NCBI GenBank assembly: GCA_965248535.1 | Contig: CBDFJR010000002.1 | Location: forward strand, 128,001 to 192,000 | Direction: 5' to 3' | Length of the DNA stretch: 64,000 nt | From: Phormidesmis sp. | GTDB taxonomy: Bacteria; Cyanobacteriota; Cyanobacteriia; Leptolyngbyales; Leptolyngbyaceae | Shown: positions 22,638-40,571 of the stretch, one piece after another | Layout: each line of letters starts with the position of its first letter | Numbering within the stretch: the stretch's first letter is position 1 | Notes under the pieces: generated by a model | What the model was told of the DNA's origin: nothing | The model's database searches: none | What the model saw: only the letters and a program-made list of their open reading frames with translations | Position numbers and translations under genes: made by a program

Positions 22638-22700
22638 AAACTAGTTAGATTGAGACCTGATTTGAGCACTCTAGCCAGAGTCTTAAAAGAATTGGTTGCT

Positions 22701-24110
22701 ATGTCAAAAAACTATCGTCAAGTCCGCAAGTCAACAGTCGTCAAAAACTCCGCTGGTCAGCAATTCCAACTAGGCGGCTATCGCCCCGAAAAGCAGAACT
22801 CTCAAGACAAAAAATACAGTGCGGGTCGCGATCGTTCCCTGCCTTCTAAAGTCGATCTTCGCGCCTACATGACTCCGGTCGAAAATCAGGGCAACTCCAA
22901 TAGCTGCACCGCCAACGCCATGGCAGGGGCCTATGAATATCTGACAAACCGCCTGCTCGGACAATCGGAAGATGTCAGCCGTTTGTTCATCTACTACAAC
23001 GCACGAGAATTTGACGGCGACCCCAGCCAAGACCAAGGCACATATCTGAAAAGCTGCGTCAAAGTGTTGCGAAAATATGGCGCTTGTTCTGAAAACACTT
23101 GGTCGTTTAACCTCGAACAAATTCTAGAGCAGCCGCCTAAAAAGGCTTATGCAGAAGCCACAAACTTCCGAGTTGAAGACGCGGCTCGTGTGGAGGTCGA
23201 TCTTCACGCCATGCGGAGTTGTCTGGCAGAGGGCTATCCGTTTGCGTTTGGCTTGCAGCTTTTCGAGTCTTTTCAGCAGGCAGGCTCTAGCGGATTGGTG
23301 CCCATGCCTGACCCCGATCGCGAAAAGCACGACGGCGGCCACGCGATGCTGTGTGTGGGCTATTCTGACCCTGATCAAGTTTTTATCGTTCGCAATTCAT
23401 GGGGCGATGACTGGGGCGAGCAGGGCTATTGCTACATCCCTTACGACTACATGACCAAGCCTGATTTTAACCACGACTGCTGGACGATTCGCCAAGTCAG
23501 CGATCGTGACCTGAGTCAGGGCATTCAGGGCAGTTCGGCTCCTCTGTTTAGTGGGTCAAAGGCGGCGATCGCGACTGCATTTCAAACCCCCGGCGCAATT
23601 TATCAACCCTCAGTGATCGCCTTGTTAGAAGAGTCTCACTATGAGACTTACACGGTTGAATATGAAGAAGAGCTTGTCTACATCGAAAACCAAGGGTTTG
23701 TCTCCGTCGATGCTTACGAGAACCTCGATTTTCTCTACTTCCAGGAGTATGACGAAACTGAAGAAGAGTCCGACGACAGCGACGAAGACTCTGAATTCTA
23801 CGAGGAGACTGTAACCGAATACGAAGAAGAGTCCGACGACGAAAAGTCCGACGAAGACGACTCTGAAGAAATCGATAACAGCGACGACGAAGAGTCTGAC
23901 GAAGACGACGAAGAGGAAAGCGACGAAGACGAAGAAGATATCGACGCAGAGACTGAAGGCAGCGACGACGAAGAGGATTCTGAAGAAGAGGAAGATCCTG
24001 AAGAGGAAGATCCTGACGAAGAGGCTTCCGAAGAAAGCGACGAAGAAAGCGAAGACAGTTATGAAGAAGAGTCTGAAGAAGATTTAGGAGGCGATGAAGG
24101 CGAAGAGTAG
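22701..24110 (+). CDS. Papain-like C1 cysteine peptidase with very acidic C-terminal tail
   Basis: QGNSNSCTA, GGHAM and IVRNSWG catalytic motifs; last ~120 aa mostly D/E/S. Confidence 0.87.
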   Translation: MSKNYRQVRKSTVVKNSAGQQFQLGGYRPEKQNSQDKKYSAGRDRSLPSKVDLRAYMTPVENQGNSNSCTANAMAGAYEYLTNRLLGQSEDVSRLFIYYNAREFDGDPSQDQGTYLKSCVKVLRKYGACSENTWSFNLEQILEQPPKKAYAEATNFRVEDAARVEVDLHAMRSCLAEGYPFAFGLQLFESFQQAGSSGLVPMPDPDREKHDGGHAMLCVGYSDPDQVFIVRNSWGDDWGEQGYCYIPYDYMTKPDFNHDCWTIRQVSDRDLSQGIQGSSAPLFSGSKAAIATAFQTPGAIYQPSVIALLEESHYETYTVEYEEELVYIENQGFVSVDAYENLDFLYFQEYDETEEESDDSDEDSEFYEETVTEYEEESDDEKSDEDDSEEIDNSDDEESDEDDEEESDEDEEDIDAETEGSDDEEDSEEEEDPEEEDPDEEASEESDEESEDSYEEESEEDLGGDEGEE

Positions 24111-24266
24111 GGCTAACCGATAGCGCGATCGCACAAATTCCATCAAAACCTGCTGCAATGCCCAGGCTGACTATTTCAACAGCGTGGGCATTGCCGTGAC
24201 ATAACCCACCATTTATCAAGCAAATTAGACGCTACAATGTGACGGTTGTATTCTGCACGACGAGCC

Positions 24267-31177: not shown

Positions 31178-31242
31178 TTTATCTTGTGTGACTATACCTG
31201 ATTACCAGGCCTAGATTGCCCACAAAATAAAGCGAATGTGCA

Positions 31243-31328
31243 GCCTAACGTTCCCAATCAGCGGCGACAGATATGACTGAAACGAAGTGCAAAGACTTTT
31301 TACGTCCGCTGCATTGGGGTTGTTATGC
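31243..31328 (-). other. attC recombination site (86 bp)
   Basis: Cassette strand: GCATAAC-AACCC-AATGCAGCGG ... CCGCTGATT-GGGAAC-GTTAGGC, 4 nt after the stop at 31333; unpaired base in the L arm. Confidence 0.9.
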
Positions 31329-31332
31329 CGCG

Positions 31333-32466
31333 CTATGGACACGAACTGTTTTTGCCATTAATAGTCCACGTATCGTTAGCGATCCAACCTGTTCGTCCTC
31401 CAGATGTAATTTCAAAATAGCCTTCTGTAGAACCCGCAAATTCTCTTGTCACGTAATCCGAGACCGTATAATTGCCAGAGCTTACCCTGATAAGCTCTTG
31501 ACTGAATCTGTCTGGGGCACTTCTTAAGGAAACCAAAGAATTATTAATTGCTACAACACATCCTGACGAAGCAATAGCTTGCCTCCTAGCTACTTCTGCC
31601 CGTTGACGCGCAAGCTCCTGTTGCCGTGCAAGTTCTTGCTGACGTGCAGCCTCTGCTTGCTGACGTGCAAATTCTCTCTGCCGTTCAGCCTCTTCCTGAG
31701 CAGCACGTTGTCTTGCAGCCTCTTCCTGAGCAGCACGTTGTCTTGCAGCCTCTTCCTGGGCAGCGCGTTGCCGTTCAGCTTCTTCTTGGGCGGCACGTTG
31801 TCTTGCAGCCCCTTGCTCGTCAGTGTTTGAGTTAGGGGGTACAGATGGCTTATTACCTGAACTTGATGGTAGTTGCGGCGAGACAACGGTGTTAGGCTTG
31901 CTAGGCTCTCCAACTTCGCCACCAACAGCTTTAGCAAATTTTAGAGCTTTAGTGTCAGAAATAAAACTTGCGACTAGGACTGCCTTCTCACCTGTTTGCC
32001 TAGTTGCGTTGATGGCATCTTTGCAGTACTTCTGCTTGACTTCATCTAAGTTTCCACCATTTATAAATACTGGATACCAAGTACTGTTGGAATCTGTAGA
32101 CTTATCCCCACAAGAGTCTTGGGGAAACTGAGGTTCACTGAGTTGAGAGTCATTACTCTGTTCAGGCTTTCTATTGATCGGGCTTTGGGTAGGTAACGCA
32201 ATAGCTGACGATTCCTCAGATTTCGGACTGAAAGTCCCAACTACTTTAATTCCAACCTCCCTAGCTCCATAAAGAAAGAGAAAAAGAGGTATTAATGCAA
32301 AAGCAACCTTTCCCCAGTGTCCGTTTCGAGAATTATTGTAGATGTACTGAATATAGTCTCGTCCGACTTGAATTAAATCTCTACCAGCTTGACCTATTTG
32401 TCCTGAATTTTCAGCGTTGTTAAGCTCGATATCCTGATCTACATCATGAGGCTTTTTCTGGCTCAT
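31333..32466 (-). CDS. Membrane-anchored protein: N-terminal SGQIGQAGRDL motif, TM, Cys-paired extracellular domain, coiled-coil repeats, C-terminal SH3b-like domain
   Basis: TM VAFALIPLFLFLYG; FPQDSCGD...YPVF...YCKDA...VASF...GGEVGEP; (AARQRAAQEE)n; VSLRSAP...YFEI....TGWI. Confidence 0.75.
   Translation of the reverse strand: MSQKKPHDVDQDIELNNAENSGQIGQAGRDLIQVGRDYIQYIYNNSRNGHWGKVAFALIPLFLFLYGAREVGIKVVGTFSPKSEESSAIALPTQSPINRKPEQSNDSQLSEPQFPQDSCGDKSTDSNSTWYPVFINGGNLDEVKQKYCKDAINATRQTGEKAVLVASFISDTKALKFAKAVGGEVGEPSKPNTVVSPQLPSSSGNKPSVPPNSNTDEQGAARQRAAQEEAERQRAAQEEAARQRAAQEEAARQRAAQEEAERQREFARQQAEAARQQELARQQELARQRAEVARRQAIASSGCVVAINNSLVSLRSAPDRFSQELIRVSSGNYTVSDYVTREFAGSTEGYFEITSGGRTGWIANDTWTINGKNSSCP
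31680..31811. repeat. 30-bp coding tandem repeat, about 4 units (A[A/E]RQRAAQEE)
   Basis: Repeats of GCAGCACGTTGTCTTGCAGCCTCTTCCTGA with variants. Confidence 0.85.
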
Positions 32467-32489
32467 AATTTTGCTCTATGGTTGATGAA

Positions 32490-32909
32490 TCAAAGTCCAA
32501 AGAAACTTTTTGCCACACCGAACCAAGGTAGAAGACCTTCAATAATTGGCTTTACCTTTCCAAATAAGCCTTGACCCGCACTAACTGTCTCATCTGCATT
32601 CTTCAAAACTTCAGTAGCCCTCTGCAAGCTAGTTGCTGCAAAATTCTTTTGAGGCTCTTTACTTTCTGCTTCTTCTTTCGCTGTCTCGATATGCCGAATT
32701 GCTTTGCTTTTCTCTGAATCGGACAAGTTTGAACTCCAAATTAATTCCTCAATTTGTGCCAAACCTGCCACTACGTCGGTAGGAGTCAATATTCCCTCAG
32801 TTTTGATCTGGTTCTGGGTCAAATCTCGTCCTGCTTGACCGATTTGTCCTGATACTTGACTACCGCTAATGGAGATGGATTGAGACTGGTAGGGCTTTTC
32901 TCCTGACAT
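32490..32909 (-). CDS. Small helical protein with N-terminal SGQIGQAGRDL motif and amphipathic C-terminus
   Basis: 139 aa; GGAG RBS upstream; ends GLFGKVKPIIEGLLPWFGVAKSFFGL. Confidence 0.78.
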   Translation of the reverse strand: MSGEKPYQSQSISISGSQVSGQIGQAGRDLTQNQIKTEGILTPTDVVAGLAQIEELIWSSNLSDSEKSKAIRHIETAKEEAESKEPQKNFAATSLQRATEVLKNADETVSAGQGLFGKVKPIIEGLLPWFGVAKSFFGL

Positions 32910-33250: not shown

Positions 33251-33465
33251 ACTGAAAGTTTCTGCCTAAGATCCCAATTTTAACGACTTAGCCTGAGTCT
33301 TTCCGCCCAAGTCCGAATCAAGCGACTTAGCCCGATATGATTTCCGCATAGTACCCCTCGACAGGGATCTTGGGCGGAAATCTTCAGTATTTCTTCCAAG
33401 AGAGAACCTGTTACCGTCCGCCTAAGATCCCGAATGACAGAATTACAGCCTTGGAACTCGCCGGG

Positions 33466-34431
33466 ATGGAACCACGACCCAGAAAGCTGCTCGAACAAGT
33501 CTCTGACCTGTTGCGAGTGAAGCACTATTCATACCGCACCGAGCAGACCTACGTTCAATGGATTCGGCGCTACATCCTGTTTCACAACAAGACCCATCCC
33601 AAAGACATGGGAAGTCCAGAGATTGAAGCCTTTCTAACGCATCTTGCAGTGCAAGAACAAGTGGCGGCATCGACGCAAAACCAAGCCCTCAGCGCCATTT
33701 TGTTCCTCTACCGCGAGGTGCTACGGCAAGAACTAGATGCTTCGATCGATGCTGTTCGAGCCAAGCAACCCCGCTATTTGCCCACGGTCTTGACAAAAGA
33801 TGAAGTCAGAGCCGTCATTGGCAACCTCAGTAGGGTGTATCAACTCGTCGTGCAGGTTCTTTATGGCAGCGGGGTGCGGTTAAACGAAGGATTGAACATC
33901 CGGGTCAAAGACCTCGATTTTGCTCAACAGCAAATCATCGTTCGCACGCCAAAAGGGGTTGAGAGTCGAGTCACGATGCTGCCCACCAGTCTAAACGAAC
34001 CGCTACATGAGCATCTGCAACGGGTACGCCGATTGCACCAGCAAGATTTAGCCCAAGGCTATGGAGCCGTGCATCTGCCGTATGCACTGGCTCGAAAGTA
34101 TCCGAATGCGGAGCGATCGTGGGTATGGCAGTTTGTGTTTCCGTCAGACCGTCGCTGTCGTGACCCTAGAACGGAGCAAATCAATCGCTTTCATCTGCAT
34201 GAAAGCGGAGTGCAGAAAGCCTTGAAGCAAGCCGTGTTTTCCGCAAGGATTCAAAAGCGAGTCGGCTGTCATACCTTTCGCCATAGCTTTGCGACGCATC
34301 TGCTGGAAGCAGGCTATGACATTCGGACGGTTCAAGAACTGCTGGGGCACAAAGATGTGAAAACGACGATGATTTATACTCACGTTCTCAATCGAGGTGG
34401 AAAAGGCGTGCGAAGTCCGCTTGATCCATAG
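33466..34431 (+). CDS. intI: Integron integrase (tyrosine recombinase)
   Basis: [23 protein letters not shown]; integron-specific insertion [12 protein letters not shown]....WQFVFPS; catalytic R (GVRLNE), HTFRH, LLGH, Y (TTMIYTHV). Confidence 0.96.
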
Positions 34432-35946: not shown

Positions 35947-35991
35947 TCGTGTTTCCTTGTTCGCTTAATAATGTCGGGTGGAGGTTCTGAA

Positions 35992-37038
35992 ATGCGTTGG
36001 ATGGTGGCACCGCTTGTAGTGGGGTTGGGGGTTGCTCAGGGTTTGATCGGTGGCATGGTGCTGGTTCCGGGGGCGCAGGCATCAGACCTGAGTGATCAGT
36101 TGAGCATCAAACTCTATAACGGCACTCGCGGCACTGCTCGCACTGAAGCCGATCGCCTCGTGCGGTTGGGCAACCAGCAGAATCAAGCTGGGTTTATAGA
36201 CAAAGCGATCGGGTCTTGGCAGCAGGCGCTAGCCATCTATCACGACATTAAAGAAGTCGAAGCGGAGGGCACGACCTATGAGGCGTTAGGTCAGGCCTAC
36301 TCAAAGGTGGGGCGGTTTGCTGAAGCCGAGGATGCGGTGCGACGCAGCTTGGCGATCGCTCGTGACACTAAAGATTTTCAACGTCAAATCTATGGCTTTA
36401 ATAATTTAGGCACGCTGCTGCTGCGACGATCGAGCGTTGTGGAGGCCCAAAAAACTTTTGCCGAAGGTTTAAAGGTGGCCCAAGACGTGCAAAACCCGGC
36501 TGGGCGGGGCTTATCTCTGAGCAACTTGGGTTTGGTTGCCTATTCGCAGGGCAATTATAAAGAAGCCATTCGCTATTATGAACAGGCAAAACCCTTGCGC
36601 GAACAGGCTAAAGACCCCGGCGTTGCTAACACGCTGAATAATTTGGGCGATGCCTATCGAGCCATTCGCGATTATCGAACGTCTTTGGTCAGCTATCGGC
36701 AGGCGCTGTTTGTGGCTCAAAATAGTCTCGATCGTCCCAATCAATTTCGGGCTTTAGAAGGGCTGACGCGGGCGTTTTATGGGCTGGGTCAAAACTCCAA
36801 CGCTTCAGAAACGCTCGATCAACGATTGGCGCTGGCTCTAGAGCAAAACGATTCTAAACAGGTGATTGCAGCGCTGAAGGGGTTGGCGCAATTCTATACT
36901 GCGAAGGGCGATTGGGTGGCGGCAGATAGCTATTATCAGCAGGCGCTGGCGGTAGCTCAAGGTTTGAATGACACTCAAGAACAGCAGGGATTGTTGACGC
37001 AAATCGGGACGCTGCGATCGCGCAAGTTTACCCAATAG
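35992..37038 (+). CDS. Secreted tetratricopeptide repeat protein
   Basis: Signal peptide; repeated NNLG..Y...G.Y..A..YY.QAL units. Confidence 0.85.
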   Translation: MRWMVAPLVVGLGVAQGLIGGMVLVPGAQASDLSDQLSIKLYNGTRGTARTEADRLVRLGNQQNQAGFIDKAIGSWQQALAIYHDIKEVEAEGTTYEALGQAYSKVGRFAEAEDAVRRSLAIARDTKDFQRQIYGFNNLGTLLLRRSSVVEAQKTFAEGLKVAQDVQNPAGRGLSLSNLGLVAYSQGNYKEAIRYYEQAKPLREQAKDPGVANTLNNLGDAYRAIRDYRTSLVSYRQALFVAQNSLDRPNQFRALEGLTRAFYGLGQNSNASETLDQRLALALEQNDSKQVIAALKGLAQFYTAKGDWVAADSYYQQALAVAQGLNDTQEQQGLLTQIGTLRSRKFTQ

Positions 37039-37152
37039 AGCAAGGGTCGCCCAGTCTTCTCACAAATGCATCTGTGGGTTGAAGAGCAGCAGTAGACTTA
37101 GGGTATAGTGAAACCCATTCGCTGCATTGACTGACCCTGTATTTTAACTGCT

Positions 37153-38487
37153 ATGAGTGATTATCGCGCCAAAACTTTGAAGGAAGCTTTTCGTCTCTGT
37201 GATGTCGATCCTTTGTCGGGAGCGAGCTTAGAGCGCTACTATGTCGATTTAGTCTCGGTTCGGAAGGCAGAAGCGATTAATGAGGTCAACACATTATTAG
37301 ACTTTCAGGAGCCAGGAGACTTTTGCACGATTTTGTTCACGGGTCATCGCGGGTGCGGCAAAAGCACAGAACTTCAGCGCATTCGTCGCCAGTGGGAACA
37401 AGACTATCGGGTGATTTATTTAGAAGCCAATGAAGAAACCGATATTAACGATGCTGAATATACAGACTTTTATCTAATCGTCATTAAGAGAGTTGAGTCT
37501 GAGCTACGGGAAATGGGACTCAGCTTTGATCCAGGGCTGCTGAAGAGTTTTGAAAAGTGGTTTATGGAAATCACTAACGAAAATGAAGAATCGATTGAAA
37601 GCTCGGTCAGCATAGCGGCTGAGGCGAGTGTAGGAAGCCCGACTCCGTTTATTGCCAAGCTGTTGGTTAAGCTTTTGGCGCAGATTAAGGGAGCCGCGAA
37701 GCAGAAAACCGTGATTAGGCAGACTTTGCAAAAAGATATTTCTCGGTTGAAGGCGGATATTAATTTGTTGCTGCGCGATGCCTATCAAAAGATTAAGCAT
37801 CGATATTCAAAAGGTTTTTTGGTTATTTTTGATAATCTCGATCGCGTGCCGCCAACGGTTGGAAATCACCTATTTTTTGATTATGCGTCTCAGCTTCAAG
37901 AGTTAGATTGCACGACTATTTACACGGTTCCTATTTCTGTGTTGTGTTCTTCTAAAAATATCTCTAATAGCTTTGGTGAGCCGCATGTGGTGTCAATGGT
38001 GGGCATCTATCAACTGGTGCGAGATCGCTGTGAGCTTGACTATAACCCTGAAGGGCTGAAGGGCTTGATGCAGATTATTGAGAGGCGGGTTAATGTGGCT
38101 CACTTGTTTGAGTCGTCAGATCAAGTTTTAGCGCTGGCGCAGGCAAGTGGGGGTCATGTGCGGCAGTTGATGCAGATGGTGCGGAGTGCGTGTCTGAGGG
38201 CTAGCACTCACAAACACGTCAAGATTCAGGCGGAGGACGTGCTGCATGCGGTCAAGCAGCAGCAGTTTAATTTTGAGCGATTTATCCCTGATGATCACTA
38301 TTCGCTGTTGGCAAAGGTTTGTTTGAGCAAAAATATTACGAAAGATGAGACGGGACAGTTGATGTTGTTTAACACGTCAGTGTTGGAATATAACGGACTC
38401 GATCGCTGGAATTATCCCAACCCGGCTGTGCGGCAAAGTGCTTTGTTTCAAACCGCCCTTGATGATCTTCTGGCTCAAAATGCTTGA
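37153..38487 (+). CDS. P-loop AAA/STAND-like ATPase
   Basis: Walker A GHRGCGKST, Walker B LVIFDNLDR, SGGHVRQL. Confidence 0.85.
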   Translation: MSDYRAKTLKEAFRLCDVDPLSGASLERYYVDLVSVRKAEAINEVNTLLDFQEPGDFCTILFTGHRGCGKSTELQRIRRQWEQDYRVIYLEANEETDINDAEYTDFYLIVIKRVESELREMGLSFDPGLLKSFEKWFMEITNENEESIESSVSIAAEASVGSPTPFIAKLLVKLLAQIKGAAKQKTVIRQTLQKDISRLKADINLLLRDAYQKIKHRYSKGFLVIFDNLDRVPPTVGNHLFFDYASQLQELDCTTIYTVPISVLCSSKNISNSFGEPHVVSMVGIYQLVRDRCELDYNPEGLKGLMQIIERRVNVAHLFESSDQVLALAQASGGHVRQLMQMVRSACLRASTHKHVKIQAEDVLHAVKQQQFNFERFIPDDHYSLLAKVCLSKNITKDETGQLMLFNTSVLEYNGLDRWNYPNPAVRQSALFQTALDDLLAQNA

Positions 38488-40571
38488 TCAAACTCACCCC
38501 GATCGCACTGTGTTTTTAGAGCAAAATCAGTCAGAGTTTGCTGAACTCTTGACGTTTATTGACTTTGCTGAGGGGTTGACGATCGGGTTTGTTGAGATCA
38601 ATCAAGAGTCAGATAAGGCGGCGTTGGTGGCGGCGCTGCGAGATCGTCTGGATGAGGCGGCGGTGCGATTGGAGGTGTTAAATTTTTCTCAAGAGTGGGA
38701 TTTGCGGCTTCGAGATGCTTTGGTGCAGCGCATTGCGAGAATTCACACCGATAAGAAGCTGGTGTTGCTGATTCAAGGGTTAGAGGTGGCGATCGGGACT
38801 GATGGCGTGGGGTCTTATCCGCCGATTTTGCAGGATTTGAATTTTGTGCGCGATGCCTATCGCGAGAGTGCGCCACACCCACTGCTGTTTGTGCTGCCAG
38901 ATTATGCGATTACGAGAGTCAGCAAATATGCGCCTGATTTTTGGGCTTGGAAGTCGGGGCTATTTAGGTTTAAGACTTCTGAGCAAAGCCTAAAACAGTT
39001 GCGGGTCGAGGCTTTTGAGTCGCCTGCGGTGCGGGTTGCGTCGAGGGAAAATCAGGCTCAGATTGACCAGCTTAAGCAGCTTTTGATGGAGCTTCGTCCT
39101 TCGGGGCGATCGATCGCTCCCGCCGAGGTGCGGCTGTGTGGTGAGGTGTATTACAACATTGGGTCGGCTTATCTGACTCAACAGCAGCCAGACAAAGCAA
39201 AAGATTATTTGCTAGAAGGGTTAAAGGTGATCGAGCGGCACCCTGACCCAGGGTTGAGGCTCAGTCTACAGCGCAGGTTAGGCAATGCTTATGAGCAGAT
39301 GCGGCAGTTTGAGCAGGCGATTAATAGTTATGAGACTGCCCTTGAGATGGCTCAATCGTTGAATCAACCTGAAAGAGTTGCCACTGTGTTGATGGATTTG
39401 GGCGATGTGGCATAGCTATTAAGGAAGCAGCGACAGTTTGAGCAAGCTAAAGCGTTTTATCAACGATCGCTACCAAAGTTTAGCTATTAAGGAAGACCTC
39501 AACGATCGCTACTCACAAGCCAGCACCTACCACCAATTAGGCAATGTAGCGCTGGAGTTGCGCGAGTTTGAGCAGGCCCGAAATGACTACCAACAAGCCT
39601 TGCAAATCTACATCGAGTTCAACGATCGCTACTACTACCACATTGAGCAGGCCCGAAAGAGCACCTACCACAACTTAGGCATGGTAGCCCAGGAGTTGCG
39701 CGAGTTTGAGCAGGCCCGAAATGACTACCAACAAGCCTTGCAAATCTACATCGAGTTCAACGATCGCTACAATCAAGCCAGCACCTACCACCAATTAGGC
39801 AATGGTAGCCCTGGAGTTGCGCGAGTTTGAGCAGGCCCGAAATGACTACCAACAAGCCTTGCAAATCAAAATCGAGTTCAACGATCGCTACTCACAAGCC
39901 AGCACCTACCACCAATTAGGCATGGTAGCGCAGGAGTTGCGCGAGTTTGAGCAGGCCCGAAATGACTACCAACAAGCCTTGCAAATCAAAATCGAGTTCA
40001 ACGATCGCTACTCACAAGCCAGCACCTACCACCAATTAGGCAGGCAGGAGTTGCGCGAGTTTGAAATGACTACCAACAAGCCTTGCAAATCTACATCGAG
40101 TTCAACGATCGCTACTCAGCAAGCGGGCACCTACCACCAATTAGGCATGGTAGCCCAGGAGTTGCGCGAGTTTGAGCAGGCCCGAAATGACTACCAACAA
40201 GCCTTGCAAATCAAAATCGAGTTCAACAGCACTACGAACAAGCCCTGCAACAAGCCTTGCAAAAAATCGAGTTCAACGATCGCTACTCACAAGCCAGCAC
40301 CTACCACCAATTAGGCAGGGTAGCCCAGGAGTTGCGCGAGTTTGAGCAGGCCCGAAATGACTACCAACAAGCCTTGCAAATCTACATCGAGTTCAACGAT
40401 CGCTACTCACAAGCCAGCACATATGGTCAGCTAGGATTACTCGCAGAGACAGAGGGAAACCAAGCAGAAGCAAAAGCCTGTCTACAGCAGGCACTGGAAA
40501 TCTTTGTTGAGTTTGGCGATGAGTATTATGCAGCGATCGTCCAGCAGCATCTCGATCGACTTTCAAGTTAG
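38480..40571 (+). pseudogene. Degenerate-NTPase-like + TPR repeat protein, broken into four ORFs (real frameshifts or mis-assembly)
   Basis: ORFs 38438-39415, 39438-39830, 39802-40314 and 40257-40571 are pieces of one TPR protein; LNFVRD...APDFWAW N-terminal domain; ATG 38480 overlaps the ATPase stop. Confidence 0.75.
39500..40425 (+). repeat. Near-identical ~120-bp (40-aa TPR) tandem repeats, 7 copies
   Basis: GAGTTGCGCGAGTTTGA begins at 39555, 39693, 39814, 39934, 40048, 40159 and 40329. Confidence 0.9.

Follow-up and report, generated by a model that had tools for sequence, protein, structure and literature searches.

A candidate transmembrane receptor/effector pair of the amyloid-signalling type, with a shared SGQIGQAGRDL motif, beside an integron integrase in Phormidesmis sp.

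The 64,000-nucleotide stretch of Phormidesmis sp. DNA analysed here (the window; contig CBDFJR010000002.1 of assembly GCA_965248535.1, positions 128,001 to 192,000) contains two small adjacent genes, named B and A in the order of transcription, whose products have the same 11 residues, SGQIGQAGRDL, near their N-termini. The locus raises the question of why two proteins of different build carry one motif, and whether a receptor and its effector could communicate through it, as the first-pass annotation had supposed. Here it is considered evenly balanced whether B-A is a two-gene receptor/effector unit that would signal via a common N-terminal G/Q/S-rich motif of ~25-30 residues with a BASS/HET-s/RHIM-like amyloid logic. 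This is proposed because the motif is conserved, disordered, rich in G/Q/S and common to neighbouring genes, is swapped between receptor types, and is found in the company of NACHT, iSTAND, CHAT and TIR proteins. Under this proposal, A is read as an NTPase-free envelope receptor and B as a putative effector of a new family.

Both genes are encoded on the minus strand, with a 23-nt gap between them (Table 1), and the motif spans residues 20-30 in B and 21-31 in A. Its 33-nt copies have five mismatches (four at third-codon positions and one AGA/CGA first position), all of them synonymous, so that the open reading frame coordinates and the codon comparison bear out the initial description of two co-oriented neighbours with an identical motif. 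Synonymous changes make up 24/99 and 26/99 of the single-base changes in this stretch, which gives five synonymous differences out of five a chance of P ~0.001. The two genes had also been described as otherwise unrelated; their codons are indeed unrelated once past the motif, but the likeness of the proteins covers the ~33 first residues (MS..KP...Q.I......SGQIGQAGRDL.Q) and not the 11-mer only, with a Smith-Waterman score of 82 for the N-termini against 21.1±4.2 for shuffled sequences (0/1000 as high). Because all five differences are synonymous and no shuffle reached this score, the identity of the motifs, judged at the sequence level, is not chance. The strict motif is confined to A and B in a six-frame regex scan of the 5.03-Mb genome, a third match being an unrelated frame with stops. 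The BASS1-10 Bell/NLR pairs (NLR, NOD-like receptor) of filamentous cyanobacteria are adjacent collinear genes with a small gap and a ~25-residue motif rich in G/Q/N and poor in K/P (Dyrka et al. 2020, 10.1101/2020.01.06.895854). Similarly to such pairs, for which a common motif of ~20-40 residues is expected, B and A are adjacent and collinear and align over ~33 residues.

The N-terminus of B is hydrophilic, and its residues 8-34, QSQSISISGSQVSGQIGQAGRDLTQNQ, include four G, seven Q, six S and three I, with no K and no P. In the AlphaFold2 (AF2) model of B, from 25 sequences, residues 1-40 are disordered, with a predicted local distance difference test score (pLDDT) of about 45, and are followed by a bundle with helices at 43-58, 64-81, 88-108, 115-130 and 134-137 (bundle pLDDT 87-97; predicted template modelling score 0.67). 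The model packs the last helix, PIIEGLLPWFGVAKSFFGL, against the rest of the bundle; this helix coincides with the most hydrophobic window of the protein (19-residue Kyte-Doolittle maximum, KD19, of 1.12 at residues 121-139). Composition and monomer disorder (pLDDT <50 for residues 1-40 of B and 1-29 of A) are those expected of a BASS motif. A word-indexed search found 25 near-length relatives of B, mostly about 140 aa long and with identities as low as 53%, the named ones being all cyanobacterial; the N-terminal consensus is QSISISGSQVSGQIGQAGRDLxQxQ, with Q10, S11, G24, G27, Q32 and Q34 nearly invariant in the 25 homologues.

The B family is large: 368 clusters were retrieved at E<=1e-3, and 249 at E<=1e-10, when 1.84 billion representatives were searched with a profile, the B module being either stand-alone or at the C-terminus of longer proteins. 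The 42 long proteins scanned include fusions to CHAT (10), pentapeptide repeats (9) and TIR (2), singletons with DUF4062, AbiTii, Roc-COR, Helicase_C, PMT and a weak DUF553, and 15 without any family; a separate search also gave two TIR fusions and one CHAT+TIR fusion. The fusion sequences inspected run from enzyme domain through motif to bundle. No Pfam family was matched by B or the motif segments even at E<=10, the RHIM and EAD models included, nor was any NCBIfam family, and a Foldseek comparison of the bundle with the PDB gave nothing at E<=1e-3. The PADLOC profile PDC-M14B does match, with residues 9-126 of B covering its positions 151-262 of 267 (E 3.1e-9), as it does for other B homologues and for TIR-B and CHAT-B fusions. 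The pair had been called undescribed, and no paper with this layout was found; the term needs narrowing, since the bundle of B corresponds to a PADLOC candidate and belongs to this large family. The own genome has a single B-module match, and for this reason B itself is probably the output. Two other identities were set aside: ElaB/YqjD/DUF883, the label given by one source to homologue P0015, since B has no Pfam match (to E<=10) or NCBIfam match; and TCAD2, an Atlas lead (0.89) that was dropped, PF19971 being absent from five genomes in a scan that was uninformative because its control was blank too.

The AF2 model of A (11 sequences) has residues 1-29 disordered at low confidence, a transmembrane (TM) helix, a disordered linker, an alpha/beta domain, a long helix and a C-terminal beta barrel, so that the domain descriptions first given for A and for the four-helix B hold. 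Twenty relatives of A were found, with overall lengths of 283-377 aa among homologues; in alignment A3 the pair C303/C376 is invariant and the pair C119/C148 almost so, while B has no Cys. The alpha/beta domain also occurs in the SH3b-bearing proteins P0042 and P0043; its likeness to SPOR is an Atlas lead only (score 0.87, SPOR on 21% of cluster members), and no Pfam match to SPOR (PF05036) was found in A. The stalk is partly encoded by four tandem 30-nt units at 31679-31828 (direct-repeat family D3), which give AAQEEAxRQR repeats, and its length varies among homologues, through which the distance spanned by the ectodomain may be adjustable. A weak TolA match (NCBIfam, E 0.004) was also obtained. 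For the C-terminus, the SH3_3 match is weak in A (E 0.029; 15 bits, cut-off 27) and reaches E 0.0036 in the homologue of locus L037, and Foldseek ranks SH3b domains of bacterial endolysins and autolysins highest, with probabilities of 0.95-1.0 at weak E values of 0.02-0.1. A has no NTPase match in Pfam, NCBIfam or PADLOC, and no PADLOC model at all.

A has no signal peptide and ~52 hydrophilic residues ahead of its single TM helix, and in its family the N side of this helix is positive in 9/11 members and the C side 0 or negative in 10/11. On account of this hydrophilic N-terminus, the flank charges and the paired Cys beyond the TM helix, the motif of A would lie inside and the ectodomain outside, in agreement with the cytoplasmic position first predicted for it.

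The motif is also shared by neighbours elsewhere. Of 401 genomes sampled from the phylum, 18 contain a B homologue; the 23 copies comprise 14 that stand alone and nine in fusions, and 13 stand-alone loci outside the own genome (L024-L036) were surveyed for their neighbourhoods. In 12 of these 13 an adjoining gene has a matching N-terminal motif: this partner is a NACHT protein at seven loci (L024, with two such genes, L025, L026 and L028-L031), an iSTAND protein followed by a MoxR-type AAA protein at two (L033, L035) and a protein without Pfam family at three (L027, L032, L036), leaving L034 with no motif-bearing neighbour. Examples of such pairs are B HVQIGQAGSDLTQNQ with NACHT EAQIGQAGNDLQQIQ in L025, B LIQQAQAGRDVQQSQ with NACHT AIQQAQAGRDTVSFQ in L031 and B LQGDNNRAVQGDNNQVVLGDGN with iSTAND LQGNENTALQGDKNQAILGNSN in L035, and the motif blocks among pairs include QIGQAGRDL, VQQAQAGRD, VQGDNNRAVQGDNN and AGRDIINN. 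Cognate motif scores are 46-83, against 26.8±6.6 for shuffled sequences. The cognate sum over 14 pairs is 915 against 556±59 for permuted partners, with 0/20000 permutations as high, a result that is inflated by the kinship of the sequences; the second NACHT gene of L024 (L024b, score 60) was left out to avoid counting one B twice. The two expectations of the earlier annotation, that neighbours elsewhere share co-varying copies and that receptors are swapped, are thus in line with what was found, the variants tracking at clade level and B homologues having NACHT, iSTAND or unassigned partners.

The partners also modify the picture of the receptor. In each of the six full-length NACHT partners examined, and likewise in the window NACHT protein, the NTPase is followed by 3-8 segments of strong hydrophobicity. 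The usual NACHT receptors of B are therefore predicted membrane proteins and not plainly cytosolic, and the statement that the receptor of such systems is normally a cytosolic NLR needs qualifying for this family. The NACHT partners (L024-L031) and the window NACHT protein have the look of membrane-embedded NLR-like proteins without WD or TPR repeats, and the partner in L025 also has a Tll0287-like domain. The L036 partner has a TM segment right behind the motif and no NTPase, and the L032 partner combines two TM segments with an SH3-like end, so that the B family has NTPase-free partners other than A. As a separate observation, at L033:6396-10976 and L035:6753-11817 a B homologue is followed by genes for iSTAND and MoxR-type AAA proteins and for a large product (with a GUN4-like C-terminus in L033), gene sets which resemble published iSTAND ternary systems and in which B and iSTAND have an N/Q/G-rich motif in common.

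Homologues of A and B also occur together, as anticipated: seven candidate pairs were found on contigs of equal size, one of them with adjacent locus tags, and an A-B pair was read directly in L037. In both families the motif is conserved across homologues down to ~40-55% identity. The N-terminal module of A, sought with a genome-collection scan and a phylum scan, corresponds to G.AGRDL.QVGRDY....N...G.W followed by a TM helix, with Q23, G25, A27, G28, R29, D30, L31, Q33, V34, G35, R36, D37 and Y38 invariant in a six-row alignment (A4). This module was found on several other C-terminal parts, with pentapeptide repeats (L040), collagen and ARC6-IMS (L042) and unassigned regions (L041, L053, L054), adding to the receptor swapping described above. 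At L038, L040, L042 and L053 the neighbour of the A-like protein is a protein of 80-125 aa that consists of a GRD motif of related type plus a single TM helix. Such small proteins may be a minimal partner class, and because A-like modules adjoin them instead, A-type proteins do not need B. They are encoded at L038:1754-2047, L040:7702-7953, L042:6793-7035 and L053:2055-2426, with up to three VGRD units in L053. At L054:1795-2169 (minus strand), a 124-aa protein ending in ...IIQVGRDY adjoins a 177-aa A-like protein starting with LKQVGRDYVEYI, so that in one partner the motif is C-terminal. Judged from these gene neighbourhoods, motif sharing is a general property of the A module too.

Here it is proposed that A would be a type II membrane protein, with its motif in the cytoplasm, and that its periplasmic part, made up of the Cys-paired domain, the stalk and the SH3b-like domain, would attach to the cell wall or envelope or sense its state. 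A periplasmic change, such as damage or clustering, would gather the cytoplasmic motifs of several A molecules, which would then take a stacked beta fold and template the same fold in the motif of B. This would free the four-helix bundle of B, whose hydrophobic C-terminal helix would enter the membrane and kill or arrest the cell. B would thus be an executioner or adaptor switched by motif templating, with A as its putative receptor, and release of its hydrophobic last helix into the membrane is the likely mode of action. The pair is probably a defence or cell-death system; abortive infection against phages is suggested by its position next to intI, in an island that also contains Shosta/PsyrTA-like and canonical-looking Bell-like/NACHT pairs. 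In this form the transmembrane amyloid-type interpretation first given to the locus is partly supported: none of the observations named there as refuting it was made, and it agrees with the co-occurrence, the neighbour motifs, the receptor swapping and the predicted topology, while its wording on novelty and on cytosolic receptors needs the qualifications given above.

Several observations weigh against this reading. The combination of A and B is rare: the A module is present in 4 of the 401 genomes, both are together only in the own genome, A-like modules occur without B in L038, L040-L042, L053 and L054, and most B homologues are without A. The motifs co-vary between clades only, the cognate partner is ranked first for only 6/14 B proteins, and some A/B pairs differ within the motif (e.g., GQIGMGGRDVI in P0008 vs GQIGQAGRDLV in P0028). 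An amyloid state is attributed to the motif by analogy, AF2 giving no beta fold, and residues 32-47 of A, the second GRD unit, are modelled as a helix continuous with TM helix 51-77. In A itself the charge flanking this helix, +2 N-terminally and 0 C-terminally, is a weak positive-inside signal, and the role in defence is deduced from the neighbours only. The core tetrad of RHIM and BASS3 motifs is (I/V)-Q-(I/V/L/C)-G; the motif in the window has G-Q-I-G, with VQIG in relatives in L024 and L025 and VQVG in L026, and no Pfam RHIM match was found. In the published BASS pairs the effector has a Bell domain with a C-terminal motif and an N-terminal hydrophobic helix, whereas B has no such domain and is the reverse in both respects, and their receptor is an NLR with a NACHT or NB-ARC NTPase, whereas A is an NTPase-free single-pass protein. 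Against the Bell-like protein of the window, hhalign aligned the B profile over 16 motif columns only (probability 2.5%), with no detectable homology in the bundle, and the N-terminus of A shows no likeness to the Bell-like motif, its score being reached by 269/1000 shuffles.

The main rival, held to be rather unlikely, is that the motif is an ordinary docking tag (beta-augmentation or a short linear motif) which keeps B attached to A at all times on the cytoplasmic side. B would then belong, as a peripheral or tail-anchored component, to an envelope complex for stress response or cell-wall maintenance, with no templating switch or cell death. The helical body and PW...G...F..G tail of B, which led one source to the ElaB/YqjD/DUF883-like label of P0015, would fit this arrangement, as would the juxtamembrane helix modelled for the second GRD unit of A, the pairing of A-like modules with small motif-plus-TM proteins without evident killing domain, and the resemblance of the A ectodomain to cell-wall-binding modules. 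However, B has no DUF883 match in Pfam even at E<=10, its family keeps the company of conflict systems, with mostly NACHT/iSTAND partners and fusions to CHAT, TIR and AbiTii, the locus adjoins intI and two defence-type pairs (Shosta/PsyrTA-like and Bell-like/NACHT), and the composition and surrounding disorder of the motif fit the descriptions of BASS.

It is improbable that the motif is instead a site for a third factor, either cleavage by a CHAT/orthocaspase-type protease at the conserved G-R-D, by which A and B would be processed, or a degron or chaperone site that both have. Orthocaspases of cyanobacteria cleave behind basic residues, CHAT is the commonest fusion upstream of motif and bundle (10/42), with the motif exactly between protease and bundle, and GRD is the most conserved part of the A module; but the Arg is not kept across motif clades (QAGQN/QAGGD in L029, QAGEN in L030), the tracking of motif variants between neighbours would be left unexplained, and the own genome, with its one B-module match, has no CHAT-B fusion. 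An N-terminal export leader, for example of double-glycine type, on two secreted or processed products would account for a Gly-rich N-terminal motif with an AG/GG-like site, and cyanobacteria encode many leader-bearing peptides. This explanation is very improbable, given that NACHT NTPases and iSTAND proteins 600-900 aa long have this motif at their N-termini, that it is also internal after TIR or CHAT domains, and that no peptidase-transporter gene adjoins B-A. Scarcely any credence is given to a functionless by-product of recent local duplication or gene conversion: the two copies are just 446 nt apart, yet their differences are synonymous throughout, the flanking codons are unrelated and the motif is conserved in both families at ~40-55% identity, by which that reading is already contradicted.

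The genomic setting of the B-A pair is integron-like (Table 1). The integrase gene intI is adjacent to and divergent from the pair, as expected for an integron, and an attC-like hairpin lies directly 3' of A, the DNA fold of 31225-31335 having -19.6 kcal/mol (z -2.5). A strict scan of the window for RYYYAAC...GTTRRRY gave no match; a loosened scan for an AAC...GTTRRRY hairpin gave two, the convincing one at 31243-31328 and a poorly matching one at 871-1015. No repeated attC family was found in the window, and no second convincing attC, nor any downstream of 31243-31328. Of the attC-bounded cassette first annotated, the integrase and one attC-like site right after A are in place but a second boundary was not found in the scan, and B-A is likely one two-gene integron cassette. 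The second A-B pair (L037) comes from a genome that also has an integron integrase match scoring above the cut-off, which contains a single in-frame TGA and is located on another contig (L043, G401:C32:2649-3587).

Table 1. Positions in the window of genes B and A, their parts and the neighbouring elements
Feature	Position	Strand	Remarks
Gene B	32490-32909	-	139 aa
Motif region of B, residues 8-34	32808-32888	-	contains the 11 residues common with A
SGQIGQAGRDL in B	32820-32852	-	residues 20-30
Four-helix bundle of B, residues 43-137	32499-32783	-	AF2 model
Gene A	31333-32466	-	377 aa
SGQIGQAGRDL in A, residues 21-31	32374-32406	-	then second GRD unit VGRDYIQYI up to the TM helix
Predicted single TM helix of A, ~residues 54-73	32248-32307	-	KD19 maximum 1.61 at 55-73; AF2 helix 51-77
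Alpha/beta domain of A, residues ~116-190	31897-32121	-	Cys pair C119/C148; AF2 120-185
Long helical stalk of A, residues 216-301 (86 residues)	31564-31821	-	AF2 pLDDT 88-98
SH3b-like C-terminal beta domain of A	31336-31560	-	Cys pair C303/C376; AF2 beta barrel 304-363
attC-like imperfect hairpin, 86 nt	31243-31328	-	AAC...GTTAGGC ends; directly 3' of gene A
Integron integrase intI	33370-34431	+	TIGR02249 E 2.1e-140, 467.6 bits against cut-off 265; Pfam Phage_integrase and Phage_int_SAM_4
Phosphoribosyltransferase (PRTase), 207 aa	30554-31177	-	PADLOC PsyrT/ShosT
DprA-like protein, 355 aa	29565-30632	-	PADLOC PsyrA/ShosA, PsyrA E 5.5e-53
Bell-like protein, 125 aa	28179-28556	-	N-terminal hydrophobic helix MDPISLILAALVAGAA; C-terminal motif FSVQISGGTVQGLTQQNTGTITQNFS
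NACHT protein, 639 aa	26242-28161	-	N-terminus MTADNFVNISGGNVQGFIQENHGAVTQYFIS; C-terminal half multi-pass hydrophobic

Directly beyond the attC-like site, downstream of A, is the PRTase/DprA-like pair of Shosta/PsyrTA type. The Bell-like/NACHT pair of the same island, 3.6 kb from B-A, has the published Bell/BASS layout: the C-terminus of the Bell-like protein and the N-terminus of the NACHT protein have motifs with a score of 72 (0/1000 shuffles as high), which makes it, from its sequences, a canonical-looking motif-sharing pair of known type. The motif of B aligns in register with the Bell-like C-terminal motif (SI.ISG..V.G........TQN), with a score of 41 against 23.7±4.7 (2/1000 shuffles as high). 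Further genes of the window are a papain-family peptidase at 22650-24110 (plus strand; Peptidase_C1 E 5e-15), with a long Asp/Glu/Ser-rich tail from degenerate tandem repeats at 23760-24115, and, on the far side of intI at 35971-39415 (plus strand), a TPR protein, a KAP/ATPase_2-like P-loop protein (weak matches) and a second TPR protein, which may form another NTPase-based conflict system.

A literature search found no description of a reverse-layout effector or of a bacterial transmembrane NTPase-free receptor, with the limit that Table S2/Fig. S5 of Dyrka et al. might list some of these proteins. Already known are non-NLR receptors (Agp), insect PGRP receptors with cryptic RHIM, and the B bundle as a PADLOC candidate. 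Known bacterial amyloid signalling goes from cytosolic NLR-type or TPR receptors to Bell-type proteins with a C-terminal motif. It is tentatively proposed, at somewhat less than even confidence, that cyanobacteria have a second class of amyloid-signalling executioner, with the motif first, a four-helix bundle and the membrane helix last, the opposite order to Bell or HeLo, which would be used by membrane-embedded NACHT and iSTAND receptors, fused to CHAT and TIR, and here driven by the NTPase-free, single-pass, cell-wall-binding A, a periplasmic event crossing the membrane solely by templated folding of a cytoplasmic tail as a bacterial counterpart of insect PGRP-LC-to-Imd signalling. If true, an effector family of at least 368 sequence clusters would have the opposite layout, and the same motif logic would serve membrane-embedded NACHT proteins and inactive-STAND systems. 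Furthermore, A would be a minimal NTPase-free transmembrane receptor, integrons would carry such units as mobile cassettes, and cross-membrane templated folding would be directly testable with two small genes.

Among known systems, PDC-M14 is a PADLOC candidate system; B covers only the C-terminal half of the PDC-M14B profile, and the PDC-M14A model is unmatched by A and by the NACHT/iSTAND partners scanned. In the BASS pairs, as in B-A, a small helical protein shares its motif with the N-terminus of the product of the adjacent collinear gene, and their NACHT receptors have a parallel in 7/13 of the other B loci. In NTP-dependent conflict systems with effector-associated domains (EADs), one small adaptor copy is on the core or sensor and another on the effector encoded next door (Kaur et al. 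2020, PMC7159879). Systems of this kind, with iSTAND, MoxR and vWA, are among the neighbours of B; however, EADs are folded helical domains, whereas the element shared by A and B is a short disordered motif, and B has no Pfam EAD match. The Bab/Agp antiphage system with BASS11 is an experimentally tested two-gene abortive-infection unit in a defence island (Ibarlosa et al. 2024, 10.1101/2024.11.07.622273). Like B-A, it combines a small helical protein, in its case the membrane-targeting Bab, with a non-NLR receptor through a common motif that has Gly beta-breakers, and it differs in that the motif of Bab is C-terminal and its hydrophobic helix N-terminal, B-A being known from sequence alone. 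In the fungal NWD2/HET-S system, the N-terminal motif of the receptor templates the motif of the effector and releases a membrane-inserting helix from a helical domain; there the HeLo domain is N-terminal to the prion-forming domain and the receptor is a cytosolic NLR. PGRP-LC of insects is a single-pass type II membrane protein with its motif in the cytoplasmic N-terminal part. Cryptic RHIM amyloids relay its signal, and that of PGRP-LE, to Imd (Kleino et al. 2017, cited via PMC13506858). That system is eukaryotic, with a PGRP fold and not an SH3b-like one and with NF-kB output in place of membrane damage; the likeness to the reading proposed for A and B is that a peptidoglycan-recognising receptor signals to its adaptor via a short amyloid-forming motif.

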